Source of the DNA: Verrucomicrobiota bacterium
GTDB taxonomy: Bacteria > Verrucomicrobiota > Verrucomicrobiia > Opitutales > LL51
NCBI GenBank assembly: GCA_021294815.2
Contig: CP095464.1
Coordinates: 846,462 to 878,461 of the forward strand
Direction: 5' to 3'
Length of the DNA: 32,000 nucleotides
This document shows, piece after piece, positions 987 to 19,582 of this stretch. Made by a program: the position numbers and the translations under genes. Within the stretch, counting starts at the first letter, position 1. Each line of letters starts with the position of its first letter. The notes under the pieces were generated by a model. The model had not been told where the DNA came from. It made no database searches and was given only the letters and a program-made list of their open reading frames with translations.

Positions 987-1063
987 GGGGGATTAGCTCA
1001 GTTGGTTAGAGCGTTTGCATGACACGCAAGAGGTCACTGGTTCGAGCCCAGTATCTCCCACCA
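987..1063 (+). tRNA. tRNA-Val, anticodon GAC, with genomically encoded CCA
   Basis: Hand-folded cloverleaf: acceptor GGGGGAT/ATCTCCC (one G-T pair), D arm GCTC-AGTTGGTTA-GAGC, anticodon arm TTTGC-AT GAC AC-GCAAG (U33, A37), variable loop AGGTC, T arm ACTGG-TTCGAGC-CCAGT, discriminator A, then CCA. Confidence 0.9.
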
Positions 1064-3962: not shown

Positions 3963-4637
3963 TTACTCCTGGGGAGGCAGAATAAAAGCGACGTCGTTAA
4001 CAGCGATCCAGCCATTTTTCCCTTGCGGCAATTTCGCTAGTAAAAAATCGCCATGGCGCTCTAAAGCCGTAATGGGTTTCCCTCGTTCAAGAAACATAAG
4101 AACACTTGCCTGCGATGTCGGCGATACACGCAACGGCGCCTCATTACGAATGATAACGCATTGGCGTTGAGCCTGTTTGAGATAGTAACCGTAGCTGATA
4201 AAAGAAGTACTTAGCAGCCACAACAATACGTAATAAAACTTTGATCGACGCCGAAGGACAAGGAAACCAAGCAAAACAAACAGGATTAGTAAAACGCCAA
4301 CTGCCACATCGGCATAAAACTTGGTAGCCAGAAGGGGCGTTAGTGGGCCCTGTTCCGAAGCCCTAGGAAGGGCCTGATATGCGGCGTCGAGGGCCGAGCG
4401 ATAAGGCGCGAGATCGCGTGCCCGCTCAAATGAAATCCGGGCGTTGACTTCATCTCCCTGCTGCAGATACGCGCTGCCCAAGTTAAAATATTTCGCGAAT
4501 GAATGCGTCGGGATGGCGTTGAGATGCTCAATCGCCTCTGCATACTCCTGGCGCTCAATCGCGTCATTGGCATCGAAAAAATCGTCGCCGTAGAGTGATG
4601 AAAGCGACAGAAAAAGACTAAAAATGAGACGTTTCAT
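3963..4637 (-). CDS. batE: BatE-like protein (signal peptide, TPR, two TM helices, C-terminal SH3b-like domain)
   Basis: Signal-like MKRLIFSLFLSLSSLYG. TPR-like YAEAIEHLNAI..NLGSAYLQQGDEVNARISFERARDLAP. Hydrophobic VAVGVLLILFVLLGFLVL and YYVLLWLLSTSFISYGYY. Tail VRVSP..GDFLLAKLPQGKNGWIAVNDV. The position after BatD matches Bat operon order. Its start overlaps the BatD stop as ATGA (4634-4637). Confidence 0.6.
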   Translation of the reverse strand: MKRLIFSLFLSLSSLYGDDFFDANDAIERQEYAEAIEHLNAIPTHSFAKYFNLGSAYLQQGDEVNARISFERARDLAPYRSALDAAYQALPRASEQGPLTPLLATKFYADVAVGVLLILFVLLGFLVLRRRSKFYYVLLWLLSTSFISYGYYLKQAQRQCVIIRNEAPLRVSPTSQASVLMFLERGKPITALERHGDFLLAKLPQGKNGWIAVNDVAFILPPQE

Positions 4638-6367
4638 GAGGATTTTTTAAGGAGTGGGATGATGCGAAGAAGGGTATCGATTTGCCGCGTCGCGTATAAC
4701 TTGAGTACGTGTTTTTGGCCAAAAACGACGTCGTCTGCCTCGTTTAAAAATTCTTCAAGCCACTTACGCTGCTCTGGTGCGACCGCTTGGCATCGATCGA
4801 GGATTTTCGCACGCGAAATTTCTTTTTCGAAGTCATTGCCCGTGACGGTGCGATTGAGCAATTGGAGCGCCGCTTTGTAACCGCTATCGACATCATTGTT
4901 ATGGAGCATTTTAACCAACTGTTGGCGTTCCTTCTTTAAATTGAGTCGAGGCAATTTTTTAGATTTCTGAGGCGCTACTTGTGAATGCTTTTTCCAAAGG
5001 CTCAGCGTTGTGATGAGTAGGAATGCGGCAATGATCGCTATCAACCAACGTTGGATGCAAGATTGCAAGATCCAAGGGGAGAGTGAGCGATAGGGCCATG
5101 TATCTTGCGTGAGTAAATGGAGCGCCGGAGCGGCAGAGGAAGACGACACAGAACCCGCAACCGGAGCCGGTGGTGCGACCAATGCGTTAGTTGAGCGTGA
5201 GACGAGAATTTTCGTGGTATCGGCAACCTCCAACTCACGGTAGGCATGTTCGGTTGGGGAGAAGTAGCCAAACTTGATTGTCGGCAGTACGAGCTCACCG
5301 GTCTTTTGCGGAATAATGACGTATTCGAATGTTTTTTGACCATTCGACGGTCCCATTTCTTTAAACTTCGTTTTAGGTTCGAAGCATTTCCAAGTCTCGT
5401 CGGCAAGAAGTGCGGGCGCTTGAATGCGATCAAAGTTGCCTTCTCCGCAAAGATCAATCGAAAGGGTAATCGGCTCACCTGCGAGCGTACGATCTGACGA
5501 TAGATGGAAATTTTGGAATGAAAAATCACCGATAGCGCCGCTAAAAGATTCGGGTGCTGGTGATGGCAATGCAGCAACTTTTAGAGGAATGATGTTGGTC
5601 TCGAGCTCACGCTGCACCTGGCTGGCCATCGCAAATAAGCCGAGAGGTTGTACAACCTTGCATAAACAGGTTGTTTTGAAGGCGAGAGAAAGATCCCCAC
5701 TCTTAATCGGAGTAACCCAAGTCGTCCAGGTAAAGACTTCCGCACCGTTTTGATACCCTTCCTTAGGTTCTTTGCCTAAAGGCCCCAAAATACAATGGCC
5801 ATTAACGGTTTCTGGAGGAATGCAACGTAGAAGTTGGGTGTCATCTCCCGTTATCCGAAGTGCAATCTGTATCGGAATGCGTTGACCAACATACGCTTCT
5901 GTGGTTGCGACATTCAACGTTGCTTCGATACCACCGGCCATTTCTTGACGTGTCTGGTGCCCATGAGCATCCTCCGTAACCGTCAATGTGGAAGGCGGAA
6001 TGGTGATAACCTCGTCCTCGGCTGCGATATCGAAAGCGGGCATTGTAAACGTTCCGGTATGTTCGGCGACGAAGGAATAGATGATATGCGTTTTACGCAC
6101 TACGCGGCCATTGGCACTAAAGACCGATTGTTGTGTATTTTCGCCAAACTGTTGGAGTCCAGGAACGTTGGGTAAGCGGAAAGACGAGGGAACGATATTG
6201 GTAAACGCGATAACATAACGGGCTTCATCGGAGAGTGTGATCCGATTAGGTTCAAAACGTGCTTCGACGCTACCTTCGGCTAATGTTTTAGATGCCCCTG
6301 CTATGGCCGAAGTGCTGATTACAAGCCATGTCCACAAAAAAACGATCAATGACGACAAACACCTCAT
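4634..6367 (-). CDS. batD: BatD-family protein (oxygen-tolerance/aerotolerance operon protein)
   Basis: 577 aa with a signal peptide (MRCLSSLIVFLWTWLVISTSAIAG). A long beta-rich extracytoplasmic region is followed by a late TM helix (WLIAIIAAFLLITTLSLW) and a helical tail. This architecture and the operon position are typical of BatD. Confidence 0.65.
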   Translation of the reverse strand: MRCLSSLIVFLWTWLVISTSAIAGASKTLAEGSVEARFEPNRITLSDEARYVIAFTNIVPSSFRLPNVPGLQQFGENTQQSVFSANGRVVRKTHIIYSFVAEHTGTFTMPAFDIAAEDEVITIPPSTLTVTEDAHGHQTRQEMAGGIEATLNVATTEAYVGQRIPIQIALRITGDDTQLLRCIPPETVNGHCILGPLGKEPKEGYQNGAEVFTWTTWVTPIKSGDLSLAFKTTCLCKVVQPLGLFAMASQVQRELETNIIPLKVAALPSPAPESFSGAIGDFSFQNFHLSSDRTLAGEPITLSIDLCGEGNFDRIQAPALLADETWKCFEPKTKFKEMGPSNGQKTFEYVIIPQKTGELVLPTIKFGYFSPTEHAYRELEVADTTKILVSRSTNALVAPPAPVAGSVSSSSAAPALHLLTQDTWPYRSLSPWILQSCIQRWLIAIIAAFLLITTLSLWKKHSQVAPQKSKKLPRLNLKKERQQLVKMLHNNDVDSGYKAALQLLNRTVTGNDFEKEISRAKILDRCQAVAPEQRKWLEEFLNEADDVVFGQKHVLKLYATRQIDTLLRIIPLLKKSS

Positions 6368-6388
6368 CTCTCTTAATTTTCTATATTA

Positions 6389-8554
6389 TTACCAAAATTT
6401 TTCGATTTGGCGAGTGGTAATTTGTTCCGGTGCTGCATAAAGCGGTAGAATTTTTTCATCGCCCTCAAGGCCATCGAGAAGTTGTTTCGCTTCCGCCGCG
6501 GATAAACCTGAAGGAGAAGGTTGTGGTTGAGCGGGATTTTGCTGGGGCTCTCCTTGTTGTGGGTCAGGATTTTTAGGCTGTCCTTGGTCCTTGTCCTTGT
6601 CCTTGTCCTTGTCCTTGTCCTTGTCCTTGTCCTTGTCCTTGTCCTTGTCCTTGTCCTTGTCCTTGTCCTTGTCCTTGTCCTTGTCCTTGTCCTTGTCCTT
6701 GTCCTTGTCCTTGTCCTTGTCCTTGTCCTTGTCCTTGTCCTTGTCCTTGTCCTTGTCCTTGTCCTTGTCCTTGTCCTTGTCCTTGTCCTTGTCCTTGTCC
6801 TTGTCCTTGTCCTTGTCCTTGTCCTTGTCCTTGTCCTTGTCCTTGTCCTTGTCCTTGTCCTTGTCCTCCGGTGCCTCCTTATCCGAATTTGCCTCTTTGT
6901 CAGCGTTATTTTCTGGATCTTCCTTTTGTTCGGAGTCTTTGTTATTCTCGTCAGATTCTGACGGATTCTGGTCGTTCTGGTCGTTCTGGTCGTTCTGGTC
7001 GTTCTGGTCGTTCTGGTCGTTCTGGTCGTTCTGGTCGTTCTGGTCGTTCTGGTCGTTCTGGTCGGGATCCTTTGGGGGCGTCAGGTCCTCTAATTTTTTG
7101 ATGCAATCGTCAACGTATTTCCAATTCTTTTTCGCGTCATCAAAGTTTTGATTTAATCCGATAGCATTAGAAAATGCGTCGCGGCTTGCCTCCCATTGTG
7201 CGCGCTTTTCTTGGGCAGTTGGAAGAGTTTCTCCGTACTTGAAGAGCGCGTTCCCGAGGTTGTAATAAATTTTTTCCTGAAGATTAATGGGAGCTTCTTG
7301 GAGCGCTTTCTGAAACGTTTCAATAGCCTCAGGATATCTCTGTAATGCGGTAAGTGTCGTGGCCTGGTTAAAGGTTTTTTCTTTAGTATCCGTACTAGTT
7401 TGCTCATAAAAATGGAGCGCATCCTCGTATTGTCCCCGCTGGAAAAGCTTTTCTCCAATACTTTCGCGTGCTAAGGTTTGCGAAATAGACAATGTCCAGA
7501 GAAGCCCAGAAACCAAGAAAATCGAAAGTTTATAATAGGCTGAGATTCCGTAGCGGGGGGGGCGCCGAGCAGTCCCAATGAGCATTTCCATTAATAACAG
7601 CACGAATGCTGGCAGTAAGAACCACAGATAGCGTTCGCAGGGAATGTGTTCAACTGACATATCGGCCTCTTGGGTAAGGTTGAGCGGAAATTGTTTTTTT
7701 AGTTCCTGGAGCAATAATGAACCCAAGTCGGCGGTGAATGGGTGATAATGTCCTCCTGTTTCATCGGCTAACTTTTTTAATGTCGCCTCATCGAGTACCG
7801 TCTTGACGACATTGCCATAGCGATCCTGAAGATCTTGAACCCTTCCGTCATCTAGCGTAATGGGAATGGTTGTTTCTTCCGTTGAACCGATACCGACGCT
7901 GTAGACATAAACGTCTTTGGGGAGGTTGATGCTCAAACTTTGCCCTTCGACTAGATCTTCACCGTCGGAAAAGACAAAAAGCACCTTTTGATTAGGAGAG
8001 GATTCGTAGACCGTTTCTGCGATACGTAACATCGTACTCAACGACGTTCCAAGAACAGGAATAATATCGGTGTCGAGCATCTGTAGACTGTGCGCAAACG
8101 TGGCATAATCTAAAGTTAGCGGGCACTGCAAAAAGGCCTCTCCGGCAAAGGCGATGAGCCCCACGCGATGGCCAGGAACTTGGCGTAAAAAATCAAGAAT
8201 CAGGAGTTTCGTGCGTTCGAGACGATTGGGGTTCATATCCTCGGCCAACATGCTTTTGGAAACGTCAACAGCGAATAGCAGATCGACGCCTCTCGGTTTC
8301 GTTGCGCGTTCTTCCTCTCCGAACTGAGGGCGACAAAGCGCGACACCCACCAATAAAGCCGCGGCGACAAATAAAAAGTGCTTCCACTTTCGACGTACAG
8401 GGCTATCGTTGGCCATCAGGATTGGTGCCAGCCGTTCTGTAGCAAAACGAGCGAGCCGACGTTTTCGGCGTGCCGCGGCGTAAGTGCTACCGAAGAAGAG
8501 AAACAAGATCAGCAGTGGTAAAAAGATAAGCGCAATGTCACGGTTCAAGCTCAT
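6389..8554 (-). CDS. batB: BatB-BatC fusion: TM + von Willebrand factor A domain + TM, then TPR repeats, (DQN)11 and (DK)46 low-complexity spacer and a short conserved tail; 721 aa
   Basis: The vWA MIDAS region is VDLLFAVDVSKSM...FVFSDGED. TPR-like repeats are EKLFQRGQYEDALHFYEQ...YYNLGNALFKYGE. The start is set to ATG 8554 (MSLNRDIALIFLPLLILF) because it forms an ATGA overlap with the BatA stop (8551-8554). The 28-codon upstream extension in the track has no support. Confidence 0.75.
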   Translation of the reverse strand: MSLNRDIALIFLPLLILFLFFGSTYAAARRKRRLARFATERLAPILMANDSPVRRKWKHFLFVAAALLVGVALCRPQFGEEERATKPRGVDLLFAVDVSKSMLAEDMNPNRLERTKLLILDFLRQVPGHRVGLIAFAGEAFLQCPLTLDYATFAHSLQMLDTDIIPVLGTSLSTMLRIAETVYESSPNQKVLFVFSDGEDLVEGQSLSINLPKDVYVYSVGIGSTEETTIPITLDDGRVQDLQDRYGNVVKTVLDEATLKKLADETGGHYHPFTADLGSLLLQELKKQFPLNLTQEADMSVEHIPCERYLWFLLPAFVLLLMEMLIGTARRPPRYGISAYYKLSIFLVSGLLWTLSISQTLARESIGEKLFQRGQYEDALHFYEQTSTDTKEKTFNQATTLTALQRYPEAIETFQKALQEAPINLQEKIYYNLGNALFKYGETLPTAQEKRAQWEASRDAFSNAIGLNQNFDDAKKNWKYVDDCIKKLEDLTPPKDPDQNDQNDQNDQNDQNDQNDQNDQNDQNDQNDQNPSESDENNKDSEQKEDPENNADKEANSDKEAPEDKDKDKDKDKDKDKDKDKDKDKDKDKDKDKDKDKDKDKDKDKDKDKDKDKDKDKDKDKDKDKDKDKDKDKDKDKDKDKDKDKDKDKDKDKDKDQGQPKNPDPQQGEPQQNPAQPQPSPSGLSAAEAKQLLDGLEGDEKILPLYAAPEQITTRQIEKFW
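6587..6862 (-). repeat. Perfect hexanucleotide tandem array (GTCCTT)46 on the plus strand, equal to (AAGGAC)46 on the coding strand, encoding alternating Lys-Asp
   Basis: Counted directly: units start at 6587 and run uninterrupted to 6862 (276 bp). A degenerate unit lies at 6580-6585 and a partial unit at 6863-6867. The protein context is PE(DK)46DQGQ. Confidence 0.95.
6965..7063 (-). repeat. Nonanucleotide tandem array (GTTCTGGTC)11 on the plus strand (first copy ATTCTGGTC), encoding (DQN)11
   Basis: Counted directly: 11 units of 9 bp, 99 bp in total. Coding strand is GACCAGAAC (Asp-Gln-Asn). Confidence 0.95.
7555..7562 (-). repeat. G8 (plus) / C8 (coding strand) homopolymer inside the batB-batC fusion
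   Basis: Sequence is tagcGGGGGGGGcgcc. The coding strand reads cgg cgc ccc ccc cgc (RRPPR). It is the only G/C run of 8 or more that I found by eye in the window. Confidence 0.9.
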
Positions 8555-9579
8555 GGGATGCGTTGTAGTTTTGTCGCTCGAAGGAGAAATTCGAGGAGCA
8601 GTAATAACATCGCGACGGCAACAAGCCACGGGAACCATTCATCGACGATCGCGTACTGCTGTAATTTTACGTCTGTTTTTTCAAGTTGATCGATGGTTTC
8701 GTAAATTTGGGAAAATTCCTCGCGATTTTCGGCCCGAAAGAACTGGCCCTGGGTTTGTTCGGCGATTGCGCGCAACGGGGCTTCATCGAGCTCTGTCATG
8801 TACTGAACTGCGATGTATTTCCCGTCGTAATCCGTCTGTATGTGTCCTTGCTCATCGGTAACAGCGAAGGGGACGAGGCCAGATTTCCCGACGCCAATCG
8901 TATAAATTTTAATTCCAAGTGCTGCCGCTGCTTCGGCCGCGACAACCGGCGATAGCGTACCACAGTTGTTGTCGCCGTCGGTAACAAGTACGATAATTTT
9001 GCTTTTAGCCTGGCTATTTTTGAGACGATTGGCACACATGCAGATTGTGTCGCCGATTGCTGTGCCATCCTCGATCAACTTCACGTGAAGCCGTCGTAGA
9101 TTGTCTTTGAGCCAGGTGTGGTTGAGTGTGAGAGGGCTCACGAGGTACGGTTCTCCGGCAAAAGCACACATTCCGAGGCGGTCATTAGGGCGATTTTCGA
9201 TAAACACCTTTGTGACCTCTTTGGCAATGTCGAGGCGCGTGATCGTCTTTTCCCGATCGCTAAAATCGAGACCCATCATCGATCCCGAAACATCGATCGC
9301 GAGCATGATATCGACGCCGCTTGAATTAACTTCCGTGAATTTCGATACCCACTGAGGGCGCGCCAGAGCGATAACAATGGCCGAAAGCGCTCCGAAGCGA
9401 AGCATAGAAAGAATCGGGCGTTGTTTTGGTTTTTTGGTAAAGCATCTTTTTATGCCATCAATCGACGAAAATTTGAACGTGGCATAACGGACATATTTTC
9501 GCTTCAATGCGAAAAACAGTGGCAGTAGCAACAGCAGCCACAAAAAATATGGGTCATGAAATGTAAAGCTTTGGGTCAT
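8551..9579 (-). CDS. batA: BatA-family vWA domain membrane protein
   Basis: The N-terminus FTFHDPYFLWLLLLLPLFFAL is typical of BatA. vWA MIDAS is VDIMLAIDVSGSM...VLVTDGDNN. A C-terminal TM is WFPWLVAVAMLLLLLEFLL. ATGA overlaps occur at both ends (9576-9579 and 8551-8554). Confidence 0.8.
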   Translation of the reverse strand: MTQSFTFHDPYFLWLLLLLPLFFALKRKYVRYATFKFSSIDGIKRCFTKKPKQRPILSMLRFGALSAIVIALARPQWVSKFTEVNSSGVDIMLAIDVSGSMMGLDFSDREKTITRLDIAKEVTKVFIENRPNDRLGMCAFAGEPYLVSPLTLNHTWLKDNLRRLHVKLIEDGTAIGDTICMCANRLKNSQAKSKIIVLVTDGDNNCGTLSPVVAAEAAAALGIKIYTIGVGKSGLVPFAVTDEQGHIQTDYDGKYIAVQYMTELDEAPLRAIAEQTQGQFFRAENREEFSQIYETIDQLEKTDVKLQQYAIVDEWFPWLVAVAMLLLLLEFLLRATKLQRIP

Positions 9580-10184
9580 GTCGCGGGAGTCGATTTAGGT
9601 TTGCTGTGGTGGATCCGTACAAAGCGCGCAAAGCGACAGGTTTTAACAAAAAGTTCCTTTTGGATATCCTCAGTCAGCGCCTCTCGGGCAAATTTCGCGA
9701 CGTCGGAGGACTGTAAAACGTCGGACAGTAGGGCGACCTGTTGCCATGAAAACTGTGTTGATTTACTGAAAAGGTTGAGAAATTCTTCCGTCGTCCGGCA
9801 GGTCAGAGAAAGGTGATATTCGCGCTGAAGATATGACTTTAGAGCGAAACACAGAGCGCTACAAAAATGAGGCGCTTTTCCAAGCAGTTGGCGAGATTTT
9901 TTGAGGTCGCTCAGAAGCTGTTGATACGAGGTAAGCGGTAGGGTAGGACGCGCGGTAGAACGACGGTACCAACGCCATAATATTCCGAGTAAAAATAATC
10001 CCAATAAGATACCCAGCGTTGTCAAAATAGGGACACGATAATCTCCAATCGGCAAAGGGGGAATCTCGGGTAAAAGCTCTTTGGGAACCTCGAAGTCTTC
10101 CGTAACAACCGCGGAGCTCGCCATTAACGGTGAAACTGAGCCGCATGCTACTGCATAAAAAAAACCGAATCGAGAGATTCCCAT
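9576..10184 (-). CDS. DUF4381-like single-pass membrane protein, first gene of the Bat-like operon
   Basis: 202 aa. The segment LPEIPPLPIGDYRVPILTTLGILLGLFLLGILWRWYRR followed by a helical cytoplasmic part matches the small protein usually found just upstream of batA. Its stop overlaps the batA ATG as ATGA. Confidence 0.55.
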   Translation of the reverse strand: MGISRFGFFYAVACGSVSPLMASSAVVTEDFEVPKELLPEIPPLPIGDYRVPILTTLGILLGLFLLGILWRWYRRSTARPTLPLTSYQQLLSDLKKSRQLLGKAPHFCSALCFALKSYLQREYHLSLTCRTTEEFLNLFSKSTQFSWQQVALLSDVLQSSDVAKFAREALTEDIQKELFVKTCRFARFVRIHHSKPKSTPAT

Positions 10185-11345: not shown

Positions 11346-11702
11346 TTAGGATGCGCGCTGGAAGTAGCTGACGGAGTTGTAATCGACGAGCGTGATTTTA
11401 ACGAGTTGAGAAACGCTCAATTCGACGCTATTGACCTGCTTTCCAATCCGCTTTTTAAGCTGTGTTTTCGGTACATTGGGAACCGGAACGGTTTTTGAAA
11501 GACTGTGGAGCGAGGTTAACGGGGGGATTTTTGTTTCCTTGGAATTTTTGCGATCGCGGTAGATGGCCGCTTTACGGTGCTGTAGTTTGCGATGAGGAAC
11601 GACCTGCCAACTGTCACTCGGAATTTTGGGTCTTTTCCTGACGATAAATTCATCTTCGAATTCATTAGTTTCATCGACAATCTTTTTTCTTCTTCCCATC
11701 AT
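11346..11702 (-). CDS. Small basic hypothetical protein (118 aa) translationally linked to the upstream chaperone-like gene
   Basis: The track ORF (151 aa, start 11801) overlaps the upstream gene by 92 nt. The in-frame tandem ATG ATG at 11702/11699 is preceded by TAAGGAGGAC, which is the upstream stop TAA plus a consensus SD. The product MMGRRKKIVDETNEFEDEFIVRKRPKIP... is Lys/Arg rich and I recognise no family. Confidence 0.55.
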   Translation of the reverse strand: MMGRRKKIVDETNEFEDEFIVRKRPKIPSDSWQVVPHRKLQHRKAAIYRDRKNSKETKIPPLTSLHSLSKTVPVPNVPKTQLKKRIGKQVNSVELSVSQLVKITLVDYNSVSYFQRAS

Positions 11703-11704
11703 GT

Positions 11705-11711
11705 CCTCCTT
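11705..11711 (-). promoter_or_regulatory. Shine-Dalgarno site AAGGAGG
   Basis: The minus strand reads TAAGGAGGACATGATG. The TAA is the stop of the chaperone-like gene. The SD lies 2 nt before the first ATG and 5 nt before the second. Confidence 0.7.
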
Positions 11712-12198
11712 AATATTTCCATGAACCGTACTCTTTTTCTTCCGTTTTAGGCTTGGAATCTTCTTCGAGTAGTAGTTCCGCTTCGCTGCAGATGTCGTCA
11801 ATTCGCTTCATCCAGGCCTCAGCAACATCGACAAAAACCGCGATGTCGTCTTCGAAATTTTCGACTTCGCGCAACGGTAACTCAAATTTGCGCTGCAATA
11901 CCAGAGTTTGTGTCTGTTTGTCGAGTGCAAAGGTAGAACCGTTTGAAATCCGCCAGAAGAAGTTTGCTTCCAGTAAAATCCCTAAAACTAACTCTTTAGC
12001 CGCAAATGGGACGACGCTGATGTACGCATACACGATGAGTTCATGGCGCTCCTCATCGAGCTCTAGATTGAGTACAATTTTTTCATCTAAGAGGATTAAA
12101 CATCGGTTATTCGCGTCTAGTTCAAGGGGTAAATCGAGCACTTTCCCCAGTTGCCTCAGTAAACCATTGACTTCCGTTTTGTCCTCCGCGTTTCCCAT
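11710..12198 (-). CDS. CesT/SycE-like (class I type III secretion chaperone fold) protein, 162 aa
   Basis: The pattern LLRQLGKVLDLPLELDANNRCLILLDEKIVLNLELDEERHELIVYAYISVVP...LGILLEANFFWRISNGSTFALDKQTQTLVLQRKFELPL..FEDDIAVFVDVAEAWMKRI follows the CesT/Tir-chaperone layout as I recall it from chlamydial Slc1/Mcsc-type chaperones. The start is set to ATG 12198 because the TTG-initiated extension to 12261 runs through an intrinsic terminator. A YbjN-like non-T3SS homologue cannot be excluded. Confidence 0.55.
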   Translation of the reverse strand: MGNAEDKTEVNGLLRQLGKVLDLPLELDANNRCLILLDEKIVLNLELDEERHELIVYAYISVVPFAAKELVLGILLEANFFWRISNGSTFALDKQTQTLVLQRKFELPLREVENFEDDIAVFVDVAEAWMKRIDDICSEAELLLEEDSKPKTEEKEYGSWKY

Positions 12199-12245
12199 CT
12201 TCCCTGTGCCCTGACGGAGATAAAATTGATTTTTACAATTTTCGC

Positions 12246-12277
12246 AATAAAAAAACGCCAAATTAACATTGGCGTTT
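12246..12277 (-). terminator. Rho-independent terminator after the lipoprotein gene
   Basis: The minus strand reads AAACGCCAA-TGTTAAT-TTGGCGTTT followed by TTTTATT. It has a perfect 9-bp stem (12277-12269 pairing with 12261-12253), a 7-nt loop and a U-tract. It begins 22 nt after the stop at 12300. Confidence 0.6.
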
Positions 12278-12299: not shown

Positions 12300-13610
12300 T
12301 TAGTTTGCGATCACGAGGCTTGGAACAGCCGTATTGGGATCTCCAGAGAGAAGGTCAAATAGGTGCTTAAGAAGCATAAATGTGGTCTTTGAATCGAGAT
12401 CATTATCGGCGATATAGAACCACTTACCGCGATGCCGGACACAAACCGCTGAATTTTTGGGTGCTTGGCGTTCTGTCGAACAGAGTACATGGAGCCATTT
12501 TCCAGAAAGTTGATGTTCCCAGTCGAAAATACTACCATCTTTGGCGATTGTTTGGCTAACTAAACCGTTGACGACATCTTCCTCCGGTACTTGGACTGCA
12601 TGGGAGAGGAAGAATAAAATCTCCATGAGGGAGCGTGTTCGCACAAGAAGGTCTTTTCCACTTCCGAGATGAGAAAAATTCGAAGTAAGCTTAAACTCAG
12701 ATTTTTCGGGATTTAGCTCGAGAGATTTCTTTAATTCGAGGATATCGGATTGCTTGGGGTCATTGGAATTAAACCTCATAATCAGGTCTTTATCCGGTCC
12801 CAAAACAAGTTTTATGCCCTTATACAGACGTTTCAACTCTTTAACATACTGTGCCAAAGGGGTGTCCTGTTGGGATGATAGAGATGGCAAACCAGTAATT
12901 TCCTGACTAACCATTTTCCTCACTCCATGGACGAAATAGTCCCAGATTTGTGAACACTGCCGAAGAAACGCATTACCGGGGACAGGGCCCAGAGTTTCCT
13001 CAAGATCCTTACGACCAACACCGAAAATGAGCAGATCTTCTTTATAGAGATGGTTCAATAATTTAACGCATTGCTCAAAGGACTCGTATTCCGGAGGGCG
13101 TTTGGGGGTGGGCCCGGAGGCCTCCGAAGCATTATCGAGCCGATTAAGTCGCTCGACACAAATGTTAAACACGCGCTTAGGCGACCAACCGGTTTGAATG
13201 AGTCCTAGAACGAGTGGGATCGGAATGGGTGTCGCAATCGCTTTGGTGAATTTTTCCCCTTTTAGTGGAGAGAATGTGATACTGGGATTTTGGAAATTTT
13301 CCATGTAGGCGACGCCGAGCGAGACGTCGAAATTGCCGTGCTTACTAATTTTAGAGCCCTGAGGACCGACACGCGTCGTGAATTTGCGATTTTCAACAAT
13401 GTTGCTCACCTCGAGGAAACAGGTCGTCTCGCGATATTTTAAGCGTACGAGATTTAATAATAGCTGCTCGTTATCGGTTTTAACGATACTCTCGTTATAA
13501 CTCGGTTTGACCTCCTGAATCACCTTAGGACCAACCGATTCACAGCCACCAAGTAGCAATAGCGCGCCCACACAGCCACCCAACTTCCCCAATCTACTTA
13601 CTGATCTCAT
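12300..13610 (-). CDS. Hypothetical lipoprotein (436 aa), conserved-looking but with no family I can name
   Basis: MRSVSRLGKLGGCVGALLLLGGC carries a lipobox-like LGGC. The start is set to ATG 13610 because TTG 13646 lies inside the predicted promoter spacer. The C-terminal RGKWFYIADNDLDSKTTFMLLKHLFDL looks like a conserved module. Confidence 0.5.
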   Translation of the reverse strand: MRSVSRLGKLGGCVGALLLLGGCESVGPKVIQEVKPSYNESIVKTDNEQLLLNLVRLKYRETTCFLEVSNIVENRKFTTRVGPQGSKISKHGNFDVSLGVAYMENFQNPSITFSPLKGEKFTKAIATPIPIPLVLGLIQTGWSPKRVFNICVERLNRLDNASEASGPTPKRPPEYESFEQCVKLLNHLYKEDLLIFGVGRKDLEETLGPVPGNAFLRQCSQIWDYFVHGVRKMVSQEITGLPSLSSQQDTPLAQYVKELKRLYKGIKLVLGPDKDLIMRFNSNDPKQSDILELKKSLELNPEKSEFKLTSNFSHLGSGKDLLVRTRSLMEILFFLSHAVQVPEEDVVNGLVSQTIAKDGSIFDWEHQLSGKWLHVLCSTERQAPKNSAVCVRHRGKWFYIADNDLDSKTTFMLLKHLFDLLSGDPNTAVPSLVIAN

Positions 13611-13628
13611 CTTTACAGAACCCCGGCG

Positions 13629-13657
13629 ATTCTGAAGAAGTATCAATTTGTTGTCAA
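13629..13657 (-). promoter_or_regulatory. Candidate sigma70-type promoter for the lipoprotein gene
   Basis: On the minus strand: TTGACA (13657-13652), a 17-nt spacer, then CAGAAT (13634-13629), followed by an 18-nt leader to ATG 13610. Confidence 0.4.
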
Positions 13658-17371: not shown

Positions 17372-19543
17372 TTAGAAAAAATCCGAAGCAAATAAAATCT
17401 CCCGCCGGAGGTAGACGCCATACGTTTCAAAAACTTTTTGGCGACAAGTTTTGAGCAAGTATTTGACGTCATCTGGTGTCGCATTTCCGGTATTGACGAT
17501 GAAGTTGGCGTGCCGTTCGGAGACTTTTGCATCTCCGTGGGCGAGACTCTTAAGTCCGCATTGATCGACCAGGGAACCTGCGGAACTCTGTGGTGGATTT
17601 TTAAAAATACACCCGATATTGGGTTCTCTAGGTTGTGATTGCTCCCTCCGTGTGCGCGAGCATTTCATCGTGGCGATAATTTCTTCTGGAGATTGCCGCT
17701 GACTTTGAGAAAAGTCGAATTGGGCACTTAAAATAATACCGTCTCTAAAACCTTGGCGATAAGAATGTTTGATCATAGACTTCGTGTGCCGTTCCAATGT
17801 GTTTCCATTAAAAGGCAGTACTTCGAGCTCCGTGAGTCGGTTGAAAATCTCTTGCCCATACGCCCCAGCGTTCATACGCAGGGCGCCCCCAAGTGTTCCG
17901 GGAATGCCTGCCAGTGATGCATAGCCAGCGATTCCAACTTTTGCCAAACAACGGCAAAAATAGGGGAGGGGGAGATTCGCAGAGGCAATAACGCGATTCT
18001 CTAGAATCTGGATTTCGCGGGGGAGTTGTCGCAGCGAGACAAACACGCCCTCATCGTAGTCCAAAAGCACATTGGTTCCGTTGCCCAAAAGCATCCATTT
18101 CACTTGATATCGCTTTAGCGCCACATTCAAGCGCATAAGTTGCGTTTTGTCGTTGGGAAAAATCAGGAGACGCAGCTGTCCGGCGATATGGATACTCGAA
18201 AAAAATCGGGATGAAACGTTGGTTTGATAGGGAATATTTTCCTGAGCAAGCCACTGAATCAGTGATTCAATCCGTTGCTCTCGGAACCAGCGTTCTGCCT
18301 GAGCATGAATACTCCCCGCACCAATAAGTACCACCGCTTGGTTTTTTTTATTCGGCTTCCGAAGTTTGCGAACGTGTGGGATGAGCCGAACATTGTGTTG
18401 CTGCGGAAGTTTTTTGAAAATTGTTTCAGATTTCCCCGATGAAATCAATTGTTCTCCGGCGGCATAGACCGGCAGCAGATCGACCTGTCGCGTTCCCAAA
18501 ATATCAGCAAACTCTTGGGCATATTGTGCCGTACGAGTATAGCGATGGGGTTCGAATACGAATGCGACATCTTTATAGCGCGACTCCATCGATCGCATGC
18601 AGTGTAAAACCTCCGTCGGATGATGAGCGTAATCACTCCAATAATCAACCTCATCAAGTGTTCCCAAAAACTGATTACGCCGAGCGATCTTGTTAGACTG
18701 CCTGTGAGAAAAGTCGATTGCAATTTTCGGATCCTTTGCGTGCAACCAATATAGCACAGCATAGGCCAGCCGCTGATTTTCCGTTAGAGAATCATTTTGA
18801 GGCCATGTAATTTCAGAAAGAGAATCGAAAATTTCCGAGTTTGAGCTCCCGAAAAAAACATGGTCAATGATTTTCCCATGAAGCCCGGCCCGATCGGCGA
18901 TAGCGTACAAACGCGAATCGTTTTCGGGAAAAATGACGACGCCACGTGTATTCTGAAAAAGTGTTTGAAATGTGGCATCGAGCTGTGCGGAGTTTCCATA
19001 ATTCACGAGATGATCATCCTCAAGGTTGAGCGCTACCGTTATGTCGGGATGATAATCTTCGACGGTCCGATCGCTTTCATCAACTTCACAAATGAGGTAT
19101 GGATCATCGGGACGATACTGTGCGGGACTTTTTCTAAAAGAATCCTGAAAGTAACCACCGAGAATATAGCCGCATTCTGGAAGATGATCGATCAGTAAAC
19201 CTGTTGTCGTTGTTTTCCCGTGGGAGCCTGTAACCGCGATCATCTTTTTGTCTCTGCAGAACTGCGCTAGTAACTGGCCACGCTTGATTTGTTGAATTCC
19301 TTGTCGAGTGGCCATCTGCCGCCATGGATGAGCTTCAGCAATGGCACTCGAGTAGACAACAAGGTCAATGCTCTTTGGAAACTGCGTACAAATTATAATT
19401 TCCTCACGTTCGAAAATGGGCCCCCATAGCGACGTATCGCCATCGTCAAAGCCATAAATTGTGTGCCCCTGTTGTCGTAAGTAGAGCGCCAACGGTGCCA
19501 TTCCCATACCACCAATACCCAGAAATAAAAATTGCTTGCGCAT
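17372..19543 (-). CDS. murC: Bifunctional MurC-MurB fusion: UDP-N-acetylmuramate--L-alanine ligase (N-terminal) and UDP-N-acetylenolpyruvoylglucosamine reductase (C-terminal), 723 aa
   Basis: MurC part: FLGIGGMGMAPLALYLRQQGH, VTGSHGKTTTTGLL, YAHHPTEV. MurB part from about residue 440 (junction near 18250): LLGNGTNVLL, AGIPGTLGGALRMNAGAYGQEI, GCIFKNP, VSERHANFIVNTGNATPDDV. The reading frame is single and uninterrupted. The start is set to ATG 19543 (track: TTG 19567). Confidence 0.85.
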   Translation of the reverse strand: MRKQFLFLGIGGMGMAPLALYLRQQGHTIYGFDDGDTSLWGPIFEREEIIICTQFPKSIDLVVYSSAIAEAHPWRQMATRQGIQQIKRGQLLAQFCRDKKMIAVTGSHGKTTTTGLLIDHLPECGYILGGYFQDSFRKSPAQYRPDDPYLICEVDESDRTVEDYHPDITVALNLEDDHLVNYGNSAQLDATFQTLFQNTRGVVIFPENDSRLYAIADRAGLHGKIIDHVFFGSSNSEIFDSLSEITWPQNDSLTENQRLAYAVLYWLHAKDPKIAIDFSHRQSNKIARRNQFLGTLDEVDYWSDYAHHPTEVLHCMRSMESRYKDVAFVFEPHRYTRTAQYAQEFADILGTRQVDLLPVYAAGEQLISSGKSETIFKKLPQQHNVRLIPHVRKLRKPNKKNQAVVLIGAGSIHAQAERWFREQRIESLIQWLAQENIPYQTNVSSRFFSSIHIAGQLRLLIFPNDKTQLMRLNVALKRYQVKWMLLGNGTNVLLDYDEGVFVSLRQLPREIQILENRVIASANLPLPYFCRCLAKVGIAGYASLAGIPGTLGGALRMNAGAYGQEIFNRLTELEVLPFNGNTLERHTKSMIKHSYRQGFRDGIILSAQFDFSQSQRQSPEEIIATMKCSRTRREQSQPREPNIGCIFKNPPQSSAGSLVDQCGLKSLAHGDAKVSERHANFIVNTGNATPDDVKYLLKTCRQKVFETYGVYLRREILFASDFF

Positions 19544-19582
19544 GCCCACCGCTTCGCCATGAATCAACGCGGGAAATTCCGC

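Follow-up and report, generated by a model that had tools for sequence, protein, structure and literature searches.

An uninterrupted tandem array of 46 copies of the hexanucleotide GACAAG, which encodes 46 consecutive Asp-Lys pairs, (DK)46, lies within a gene for a fusion of the proteins BatB and BatC on contig CP095464.1 (GenBank assembly GCA_021294815.2) of a Verrucomicrobiota bacterium of the order Opitutales, lineage LL51. The stretch analysed, referred to here as the window, comprises 32,000 nucleotides (positions 846,462 to 878,461 of the contig, forward strand), and all coordinates are those of the window. The array is a real coding microsatellite of unusual purity and length, far beyond chance. 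It is probable that the array was expanded in frame by slippage within a tether that is constrained in composition and unconstrained in sequence, and that it lengthens the leash between a tetratricopeptide repeat (TPR) domain and a C-terminal module. The gene and its parts are listed below; residue numbers count from the start codon at 8554 unless stated otherwise.

6389..8554, minus strand: BatB-BatC fusion gene, 721 amino acids, delimited from the list of open reading frames (ORFs), the upstream sequence and homologues that align from the Met at 8554.
7685..8329, minus strand: von Willebrand factor A (VWA) domain, residues ~76-290, from Pfam VWA_2, hydropathy and the AlphaFold2 (AF2) model.
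7082..7459, minus strand: TPR domain, residues ~366-491, from Pfam TPR_1, TPR_2 and TPR_11 and the helices of the AF2 model.
6966..7064, minus strand: second perfect array, 99 bp with a period of 9 (GACCAGAAC), encoding (DQN)11, residues 498-530, from Tandem Repeats Finder (TRF), run extension and the sequence.
6868..6965, minus strand: acidic, low-complexity spacer without repeats that separates the two arrays (PSESDENNKDSEQKEDPENNADKEANSDKEAPE), from translation.
6587..6867, minus strand: perfect hexanucleotide array (GACAAG)46 with flanking partial units, encoding (DK)46, from an exact string test, run extension, TRF and translation.
6509..6586, minus strand: P/Q-rich distal part of the linker (QGQPKNPDPQQGEPQQNPAQPQPSPSG), from translation and a predicted local distance difference test (pLDDT) score below 50.
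6392..6508, minus strand: conserved C-terminal module with a short helix (LSAAEAKQLLDGLEGDEKILP), ~17 variable residues and a terminal Trp (..EKFW), from the homologue alignment and the AF2 model.

Positions 6587-6862 of the window read exactly (GTCCTT)46 in an exact string test, with zero variant units in 276 bp, so that the 46 flawless copies reported in the first-pass annotation are confirmed. On extension the perfect period-6 run reaches 6867 (281 bp, 46.8 units), and TRF calls the array at 6579-6867 with a period of 6, 48 copies, 99% matches and a score of 569. In the codon phase of the minus strand the array reads (GAC AAG)46 from 6865 to 6590, which is the sole long open frame and places (DK)46 at residues 564-655, or at 592-683 of the longest ORF (6389..8638, minus strand). 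Translation, together with the VWA_2 and TPR matches in Pfam, also bears out that the array encodes (DK)46 inside a BatB-BatC fusion. Antisense ORFs of the types (LV)n and (SL)n that cross the array on the plus strand (6521..6961 and 6591..7151) were rejected as mechanical by-products of the repeat. The sole other notable TRF array in the 32 kb is the 9-bp repeat of the same linker; it lies ~100 bp from the DK array, upstream on the coding strand, and shows 100% matches over 11.0 copies, the final unit ending in the synonymous codon AAT. With both arrays in one linker, the instability is localised. The gene holds two uninterrupted short-unit tandem arrays, a 281-bp run of period 6 and a 99-bp run of period 9, and both units keep the reading frame at every copy number; on/off phase variation by frameshift is ruled out for this reason. 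The codons of the DK array are minority choices (GAC makes up 35% of Asp and AAG 32% of Lys codons), which fits the amplification of one founder unit and not translational selection. Because a perfect array of 281 bp exceeds short-read lengths, the source assembly is probably long-read based.

The position of the array was compared across 120 homologous proteins (P0001-P0120) and 80 genomic loci, with an alignment of 65 sequences. The set shares a common layout, in which a hydrophilic low-complexity segment leads from the TPR domain to the conserved C-terminal module. In the window protein the array lies within a segment of ~185 residues that joins the TPR domain to the conserved C-terminal helix; the domain map and the conserved C-terminal motif both agree with its earlier placement between the TPR domain and the C-terminal tail. 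Every homologue examined has a hydrophilic low-complexity linker of D, E, K, Q, N and S at the position of the array, so that the charged low-complexity tails noted earlier for BatC-type proteins are a family-wide trait. Measured between the invariant landmarks N477 and A689, the linker is 56-242 amino acids long (median 132), and that of the window protein, with 211, is the fourth longest of the 65. Without (DK)46 it would measure 119 amino acids, near the family median. The residues Q, E, K, D, N and S make up 74% of the pooled homologue linkers, which are slightly acidic and contain ~6% hydrophobic residues. The window linker falls inside the family range in both composition and net charge. 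Its 4% of hydrophobic residues is below this family mean; its charge fractions are f+ 0.26 and f- 0.37 over the whole linker, and its net charge per residue of -0.11 is within the -0.03 to -0.20 of the first eleven homologues listed.

Repeats are frequent in these linkers. TRF arrays with a score ≥40 were found in the linkers of 50 of the 74 relatives, mostly degenerate or of long period, such as the (DQDQK) repeat of L006 (~26 copies, 91% match) and an 87-bp unit in L004. The longest perfect linker run in any of the 80 relatives is 59 bp, compared with 281 bp in the window, in a comparison where short-read assemblies are unable to hold longer perfect runs; a nucleotide-perfect array of this length is unusual, as had been supposed. 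The window array stands at the extreme of a linker that is hypervariable throughout the family, and the birth of repeats is common in the family.

The C-terminal module differs from the linker in its conservation. The family consensus is MTxEEAxxLLDSLxxxEKKLP, after which come ~17 variable residues and a final Trp, mostly as KDW (EKFW in the window protein). The terminal W is present in 103 of the 120 homologues, and A689, L693 and W721 are invariant in the 65-sequence alignment. Searches of the module against Pfam and PDB gave no significant match; the SHOCT-like family PF22746 scored 13-16 bits (E=0.01-0.08) in three family members and missed its gathering threshold of 27. A tail of the KDW type is also encoded on a contig of 177 kb that carries the label of a Klebsiella pneumoniae metagenome-assembled genome (MAG) (L048, CAMBZJ010000001.1), as part of a verrucomicrobia-like BatB/C protein with 35% identity; this record may be mislabelled or contaminated.

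The turnover of the array can be followed in L001 (CAMWJR010000055.1), an uncultured verrucomicrobial MAG and the sole close relative found. L001 and the window are collinear over 5.4 kb, with 92.2% nucleotide identity, and their BatB/C proteins are 95% identical in amino acids. L001 carries both units in the same frame and at the same sites, with 5 copies of GACAAG in a run of 34 bp (46 in the window) and 6 copies of GACCAGAAC (11 in the window). The spacer at 6868..6965 aligns to the homologous spacer of L001 with substitutions, and the sequence that follows the DK run in L001 differs from that of the window, including the distal linker at 6509..6586. Codon sites diverge by 8.3% overall between the two, with 4.0%, 2.4% and 18.3% at the first, second and third positions of the flanking codons. 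At this divergence, ~23 differences are expected over a static array of 92 codons since the split from L001, and the number of variant units observed is 0; the array was therefore expanded or homogenised after the split. The recent expansion or turnover that the purity of the array had first suggested thus finds support both in the five copies of a 92%-identical relative and in the lack of variant units despite the divergence. Contig ends or scaffold gaps fall inside the BatB/C linker in L001 (5516-5587) and in several other related MAGs, a sign that this region routinely breaks short-read assemblies.

The start of the fusion gene is probably the ATG at 8554, and the start of the longest ORF at 8638 is probably wrong, since the former overlaps the stop codon of batA as ATGA and homologues align from that Met. 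The ATGA overlap of the batA stop and the batB/C start (8551-8554) suggests translational coupling. The VWA domain is matched by Pfam VWA_2 at residues 120-227 (E=2.8e-17) and is flanked by hydrophobic helices at 7-25, 60-78 and 310-328, with a weaker one at 339-358, as judged by hydropathy. The TPR domain (Pfam TPR_1, E=6.8e-11) comes after these membrane anchor helices. Positively charged loops occur at 26-55 (9 K/R) and as RRPPRY after the helix 310-328. As these loops are assigned to the cytoplasm by the positive-inside rule, the VWA domain, the TPR domain, the linker and the C-terminal module are predicted to be periplasmic. In an AF2 model built with the 65-sequence alignment, the VWA and TPR domains reach a pLDDT of ~90-98 (TPR helices 94-98). 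Most of residues 498-683 score below 50, with short stretches of the DK array at ~50-53, and show no secondary structure; the model thus predicts that the linker segment is disordered. The short C-terminal helix, at 686-695, is docked to nothing, and no confident docking onto the TPR domain was seen in the model.

These observations are best accommodated by slippage within a tolerant tether. The tether would be constrained in character only, as a mildly acidic stretch of polar and charged residues with few hydrophobic ones and a length of roughly 60-240 residues. Its sequence would be free, so that tandem duplications would continually arise and decay there. Replication slippage may have turned the short units GACAAG and GACCAGAAC into pure microsatellites in this lineage. 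MutS-type mismatch repair detects loops of 6 and 9 nt poorly; gain and loss of units would therefore outpace point mutation, and a long array would stay homogeneous. DNA folding of both arrays on both strands gave no hairpin, with a minimum free energy of 0 kcal/mol. A structure-driven expansion is ruled out by these folds, and plain replication slippage is the economical mechanism. An RNA fold of 6560-6900 (minus strand) with a minimum free energy of -43.6 kcal/mol and z = -11 was set aside as probably an artefact of repetitiveness or of the energy model; it consists of lone G-C pairs that alternate with 2x2 purine loops, the registers are degenerate, and the centroid shows no structure. The product of the array would be an alternating Asp-Lys polyzwitterion, probably a well-hydrated, expanded and flexible chain. 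The DK segment would add reach between the TPR domain and the C-terminal module without creating a new function. In simulations, well-mixed polyampholytes that contain Lys favour expanded, strongly hydrated self-avoiding-walk ensembles, and (KD)25 was among the polyzwitterions of that study (PMC9171777). Simulations of polyzwitterions of the (KD)25 type and the disorder predicted by AF2 are both consistent with the flexible, extended DK linker proposed in the first-pass annotation.

Several points weigh against this account. Hydropathy and the positive-inside rule are the basis of the predicted periplasmic topology, and the fourth helix is of borderline hydrophobicity (~1.55 by hand calculation, against a threshold of 1.6). 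Low pLDDT is a mere proxy for disorder. Asp-containing polyzwitterions, illustrated by (RD)25, also populate metastable necklace-like states, so that an extended chain is not guaranteed (PMC9171777). L001 is a separate species-level lineage (92% nucleotide identity) and a short-read MAG; its contig stops 38 bp past the DK run, and its 9-mer run is exactly 55 bp long, a possible collapse at k=55. The copy numbers of L001 are lower bounds at worst. No second assembly of the same species was found in metagenome scans guided by flank pattern and by protein, and copy variation within the species was not observed. Exact look-ups of the BatA and BatB/C proteins of the window gave no match either, so that the collection searched does not contain the source genome. 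The scan with the flank pattern common to the window and L001 returned 0 matches, and the protein-guided scan returned nothing closer than relatives at 31-32% identity. The data fit equally well a length that drifts by neutral slippage inside the range that is tolerated and one that is actively tuned by selection.

Active tuning would take the form of an adaptive length switch, in which slippage is exploited for heritable, reversible variation of tether length that alters the reach of the Trp-ending module from the inner membrane and so tunes the Bat complex across the population. As the unit lengths are divisible by three, no slip shifts the reading frame; two independent pure arrays occur in one linker, with copy numbers 9-fold and ~2-fold apart from those of L001, and the C-terminal module is strongly conserved where the tether is not. 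However, linker length varies 4-fold across the family without visible pattern, which suggests tolerance rather than tuning. The AF2 model shows no docking of the C-terminal module, which is not known to have a partner, and the phenotype of Bat is itself disputed (PMC3557215). A switch of this kind, for which the conserved C-terminal module and the frame-keeping units are the positive evidence, is considered unlikely. It is very unlikely that the Bat tether acts as a slippage-driven molecular ruler, in which DK and DQN units, added or removed in frame, heritably and reversibly reset the reach of the Trp-terminated peptide from the inner membrane. The peptide might then contact the TPR groove of BatE or that of BatC, or else some component of the outer membrane or of the peptidoglycan. 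If the ruler were true, clonal populations would hold a spectrum of envelope-sensing set-points, and length-phase variation would occur in a periplasmic housekeeping system and not in a surface antigen. A specific role of Asp-Lys chemistry, such as the binding or buffering of divalent cations, electrostatic attachment to peptidoglycan or lipopolysaccharide, or a non-fouling hydrated periplasmic brush, would draw on the extreme charge density of the linker and on the distinctive necklace-like states of Asp polyzwitterions in simulation (PMC9171777). Homologues, however, fill the same position with chemically different sequences rich in Q, N, S and E, and L001 has five DK units only, and we give this chemistry hardly any credence.

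An artefact of assembly or consensus would mean that the array exists, but that its length or perfect purity stems from the way in which repetitive reads were assembled or polished. Assemblers are well known to struggle with perfect arrays, and the linker coincides with contig ends in L001, L004, L006 and L027 and with N-gaps in L038, L054 and L070; in this respect the region is the likely site of assembly collapse that it was first taken for. Yet L001, an independent assembly, shows the same unit, frame and site, and the reading frame of the window runs through the array into the conserved C-terminal motif. The ORFs of the surrounding 32 kb are all intact, which argues for a high-quality consensus, and short-read collapse shortens arrays and does not lengthen them. 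An artefactual length or purity is accordingly judged highly improbable. Regulation of translation has also been considered: the mRNA holds 46 AAGGAC motifs, as GAC follows each AAG, including the Asp codon after the array, and these could base-pair with the anti-Shine-Dalgarno end of the 16S rRNA, so that ribosomes are held up or stalled, perhaps to coordinate membrane insertion or export. The count of 46 tandem AAGGA motifs of Shine-Dalgarno (SD) type was correct from the outset, and one clear AAGGAGG-ATG arrangement is present at 11711-11705. The pairing during elongation that had been thought conceivable fares less well. An SD-like motif lies within 18 nt of only 1 of 22 longest-ORF starts, the example at 11711-11705 being additional. 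Inside coding sequence SD-like pentamers and hexamers are not depleted; AAGGA, AGGAG and GGAGG occur 33, 15 and 26 times against 28, 24 and 21 expected. AAGGA is a weak, A/U-rich match of 5 bp, and slippage alone accounts for the purity of the array. Because hardly any ORF start is preceded by an SD-like motif (1/22, with unrefined longest-ORF starts used), initiation in this organism is suggested to be mostly SD-independent. Mohammad et al. 2016 reportedly ascribed apparent SD-linked pausing to a bias in the size selection of footprints, which counts against SD pausing. Bacterial ribosomes are able to base-pair with SD-like sequences inside ORFs; such internal motifs have been linked to longer ribosome footprints, and a narrow size selection of footprints biases profiling (PMC6377232). 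A regulatory effect of the array on translation is thought extremely unlikely.

Slippage in a tolerant tether remains the preferred explanation, and the gene that hosts it belongs to a bat cluster at 3963-10184, in the order DUF4381-batA-batB/C-batD-batE. The genes are co-oriented, with starts and stops that overlap or abut. Besides the fusion gene the cluster comprises the following features.

9576..10184, minus strand: small DUF4381-like membrane protein, first gene of the cluster, from a weak Pfam match (E=0.0056).
8551..9579, minus strand: batA, with a BatA N-terminal domain (Pfam PF07584) and a VWA domain.
4634..6367, minus strand: batD, from Pfam BatD PF13584 (E=3.3e-16).
3963..4637, minus strand: BatE-like protein with TPR and SH3 domains (Pfam TPR_2 and SH3_3).

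By architecture and gene context, the host protein is classed as a Bat-type BatB-BatC fusion. The identity given to it in the first-pass annotation is borne out by the VWA_2 and TPR matches and by the flanking genes for BatA, BatD and the BatE-like TPR/SH3 protein. In NCBIfam the fusion protein scores 135.8 bits with BatB_Lepto (cut-off 350) and 28.3 with BatC_Lepto (cut-off 175), and the batA product scores 216.9 bits with BatA_Lepto (cut-off 380), all below their cut-offs. Since the Leptospira models are lineage-specific, the values of the fusion protein mean that it is not a Leptospira orthologue, rather than that it is not Bat-like. Its nearest database homologues are 43-48% identical (48% being the maximum) and come from MAGs of Puniceicoccales (Verrucomicrobiota). 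Genes for MoxR and DUF58 proteins are typical neighbours in the extended bat operon. No match to the MoxR AAA+ ATPase or to DUF58 was found among the 23 ORFs scanned in the window; these genes could sit elsewhere in the genome. For the Bat (Bacteroides aerotolerance) proteins a phenotype in aerotolerance or oxidative stress is disputed even in the species that have been studied, and a periplasmic complex has been proposed (PMC3557215).

The remaining genes of the window are chromosomal housekeeping genes: pheS, which is divergent and upstream of the bat cluster, dnaE, priA, a murC-murB fusion, folD, ispF and malQ. The murC-murB fusion is one ORF of 731 amino acids with Mur ligase (MurC-like) and MurB domains (17372-19567, minus strand). 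A gene of the CesT family of type III secretion chaperones is present in this verrucomicrobial chromosome (11710-12261, minus strand, Pfam E=1.6e-19). Upstream of it lies an ORF of 448 amino acids without a Pfam match (12300-13646, minus strand), and downstream a small ORF rich in Lys and Arg (11346-11801, minus strand), which is preceded by the sole strong AAGGAGG SD sequence of the window. The neighbourhood of the CesT-family gene may hint at a host-associated lifestyle. A tRNA-Val gene (anticodon GAC) is located at 987-1063 (plus strand).

The array resembles other flexible repeat stalks, yet it belongs to none of them. With the contingency loci (Vlp of Mycoplasma, and simple sequence repeats of Neisseria and Haemophilus) it shares a pure short-unit repeat in a gene for an envelope protein, in which a change in copy number by slipped strands is expected; in contrast to these loci its unit is a multiple of 3 and allows no on/off switching, and the protein is not predicted to be surface-exposed. 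The Ser-Asp repeats of the staphylococcal Clf-Sdr proteins are likewise long Asp-containing dipeptide repeats that serve as a flexible stalk from a functional domain to an anchor. Their number varies among strains, and they are built from an imperfect 18-bp unit. The window protein differs in its pure hexamer unit, its predicted periplasmic location, its Gram-negative host and its end in ...IEKFW without LPXTG. Its NCBIfam scores with SdrC, SdrD, ClfA and ClfB are 28-38 bits against cut-offs of 999-2500 and come from the low-complexity residues 524-689 only, and together with the missing LPXTG they rule out membership in the Clf-Sdr adhesins. The (Glu-Pro)n-(Lys-Pro)n spacer of TonB and the Q-rich linkers of the FtsN/DamX type belong to proteins that are anchored in the inner membrane and use the spacer to bring a small conserved C-terminal module to the other side of the periplasm. 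The likeness to the tether of the window protein, a charged dipeptide-repeat or low-complexity spacer that leads to a conserved C-terminal module, is by analogy only, and Pfam gives no TonB or SPOR C-terminal domain here. The DK array is free of prolines, unlike the TonB spacer, and a rigid rod is therefore not expected. Synthetic or simulated (KD)n and (EK)n polyzwitterions have the same strictly alternating pattern of acid and base (PMC9171777); the present case is natural and genome-encoded, with 46 units within a longer acidic linker. A literature search for repeats of DK or KD yielded next to nothing of relevance. BatB-BatC fusions are documented in Leptospira biflexa, Borrelia burgdorferi, Spirochaeta thermophila and Francisella tularensis (PMC3557215). 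The window protein is like them in its VWA and TPR domains, its membrane helices and its BatA-, BatD- and BatE-like neighbours, and differs in being a Puniceicoccales-like verrucomicrobial protein, in the absence of MoxR and DUF58 genes from the window and in the two perfect microsatellites of its linker.

A pure coding microsatellite in a low-complexity linker changes no concept. The array marks a site where short-read assemblies of the clade break or collapse, and it could serve as a marker for strain typing. Of greater interest than the array itself is a by-product of the analysis, the conserved C-terminal module that ends in Trp and is held on a variable leash. If the copy number is real and variable, the locus would be a natural experiment on how much change in length and sequence a disordered periplasmic tether tolerates.

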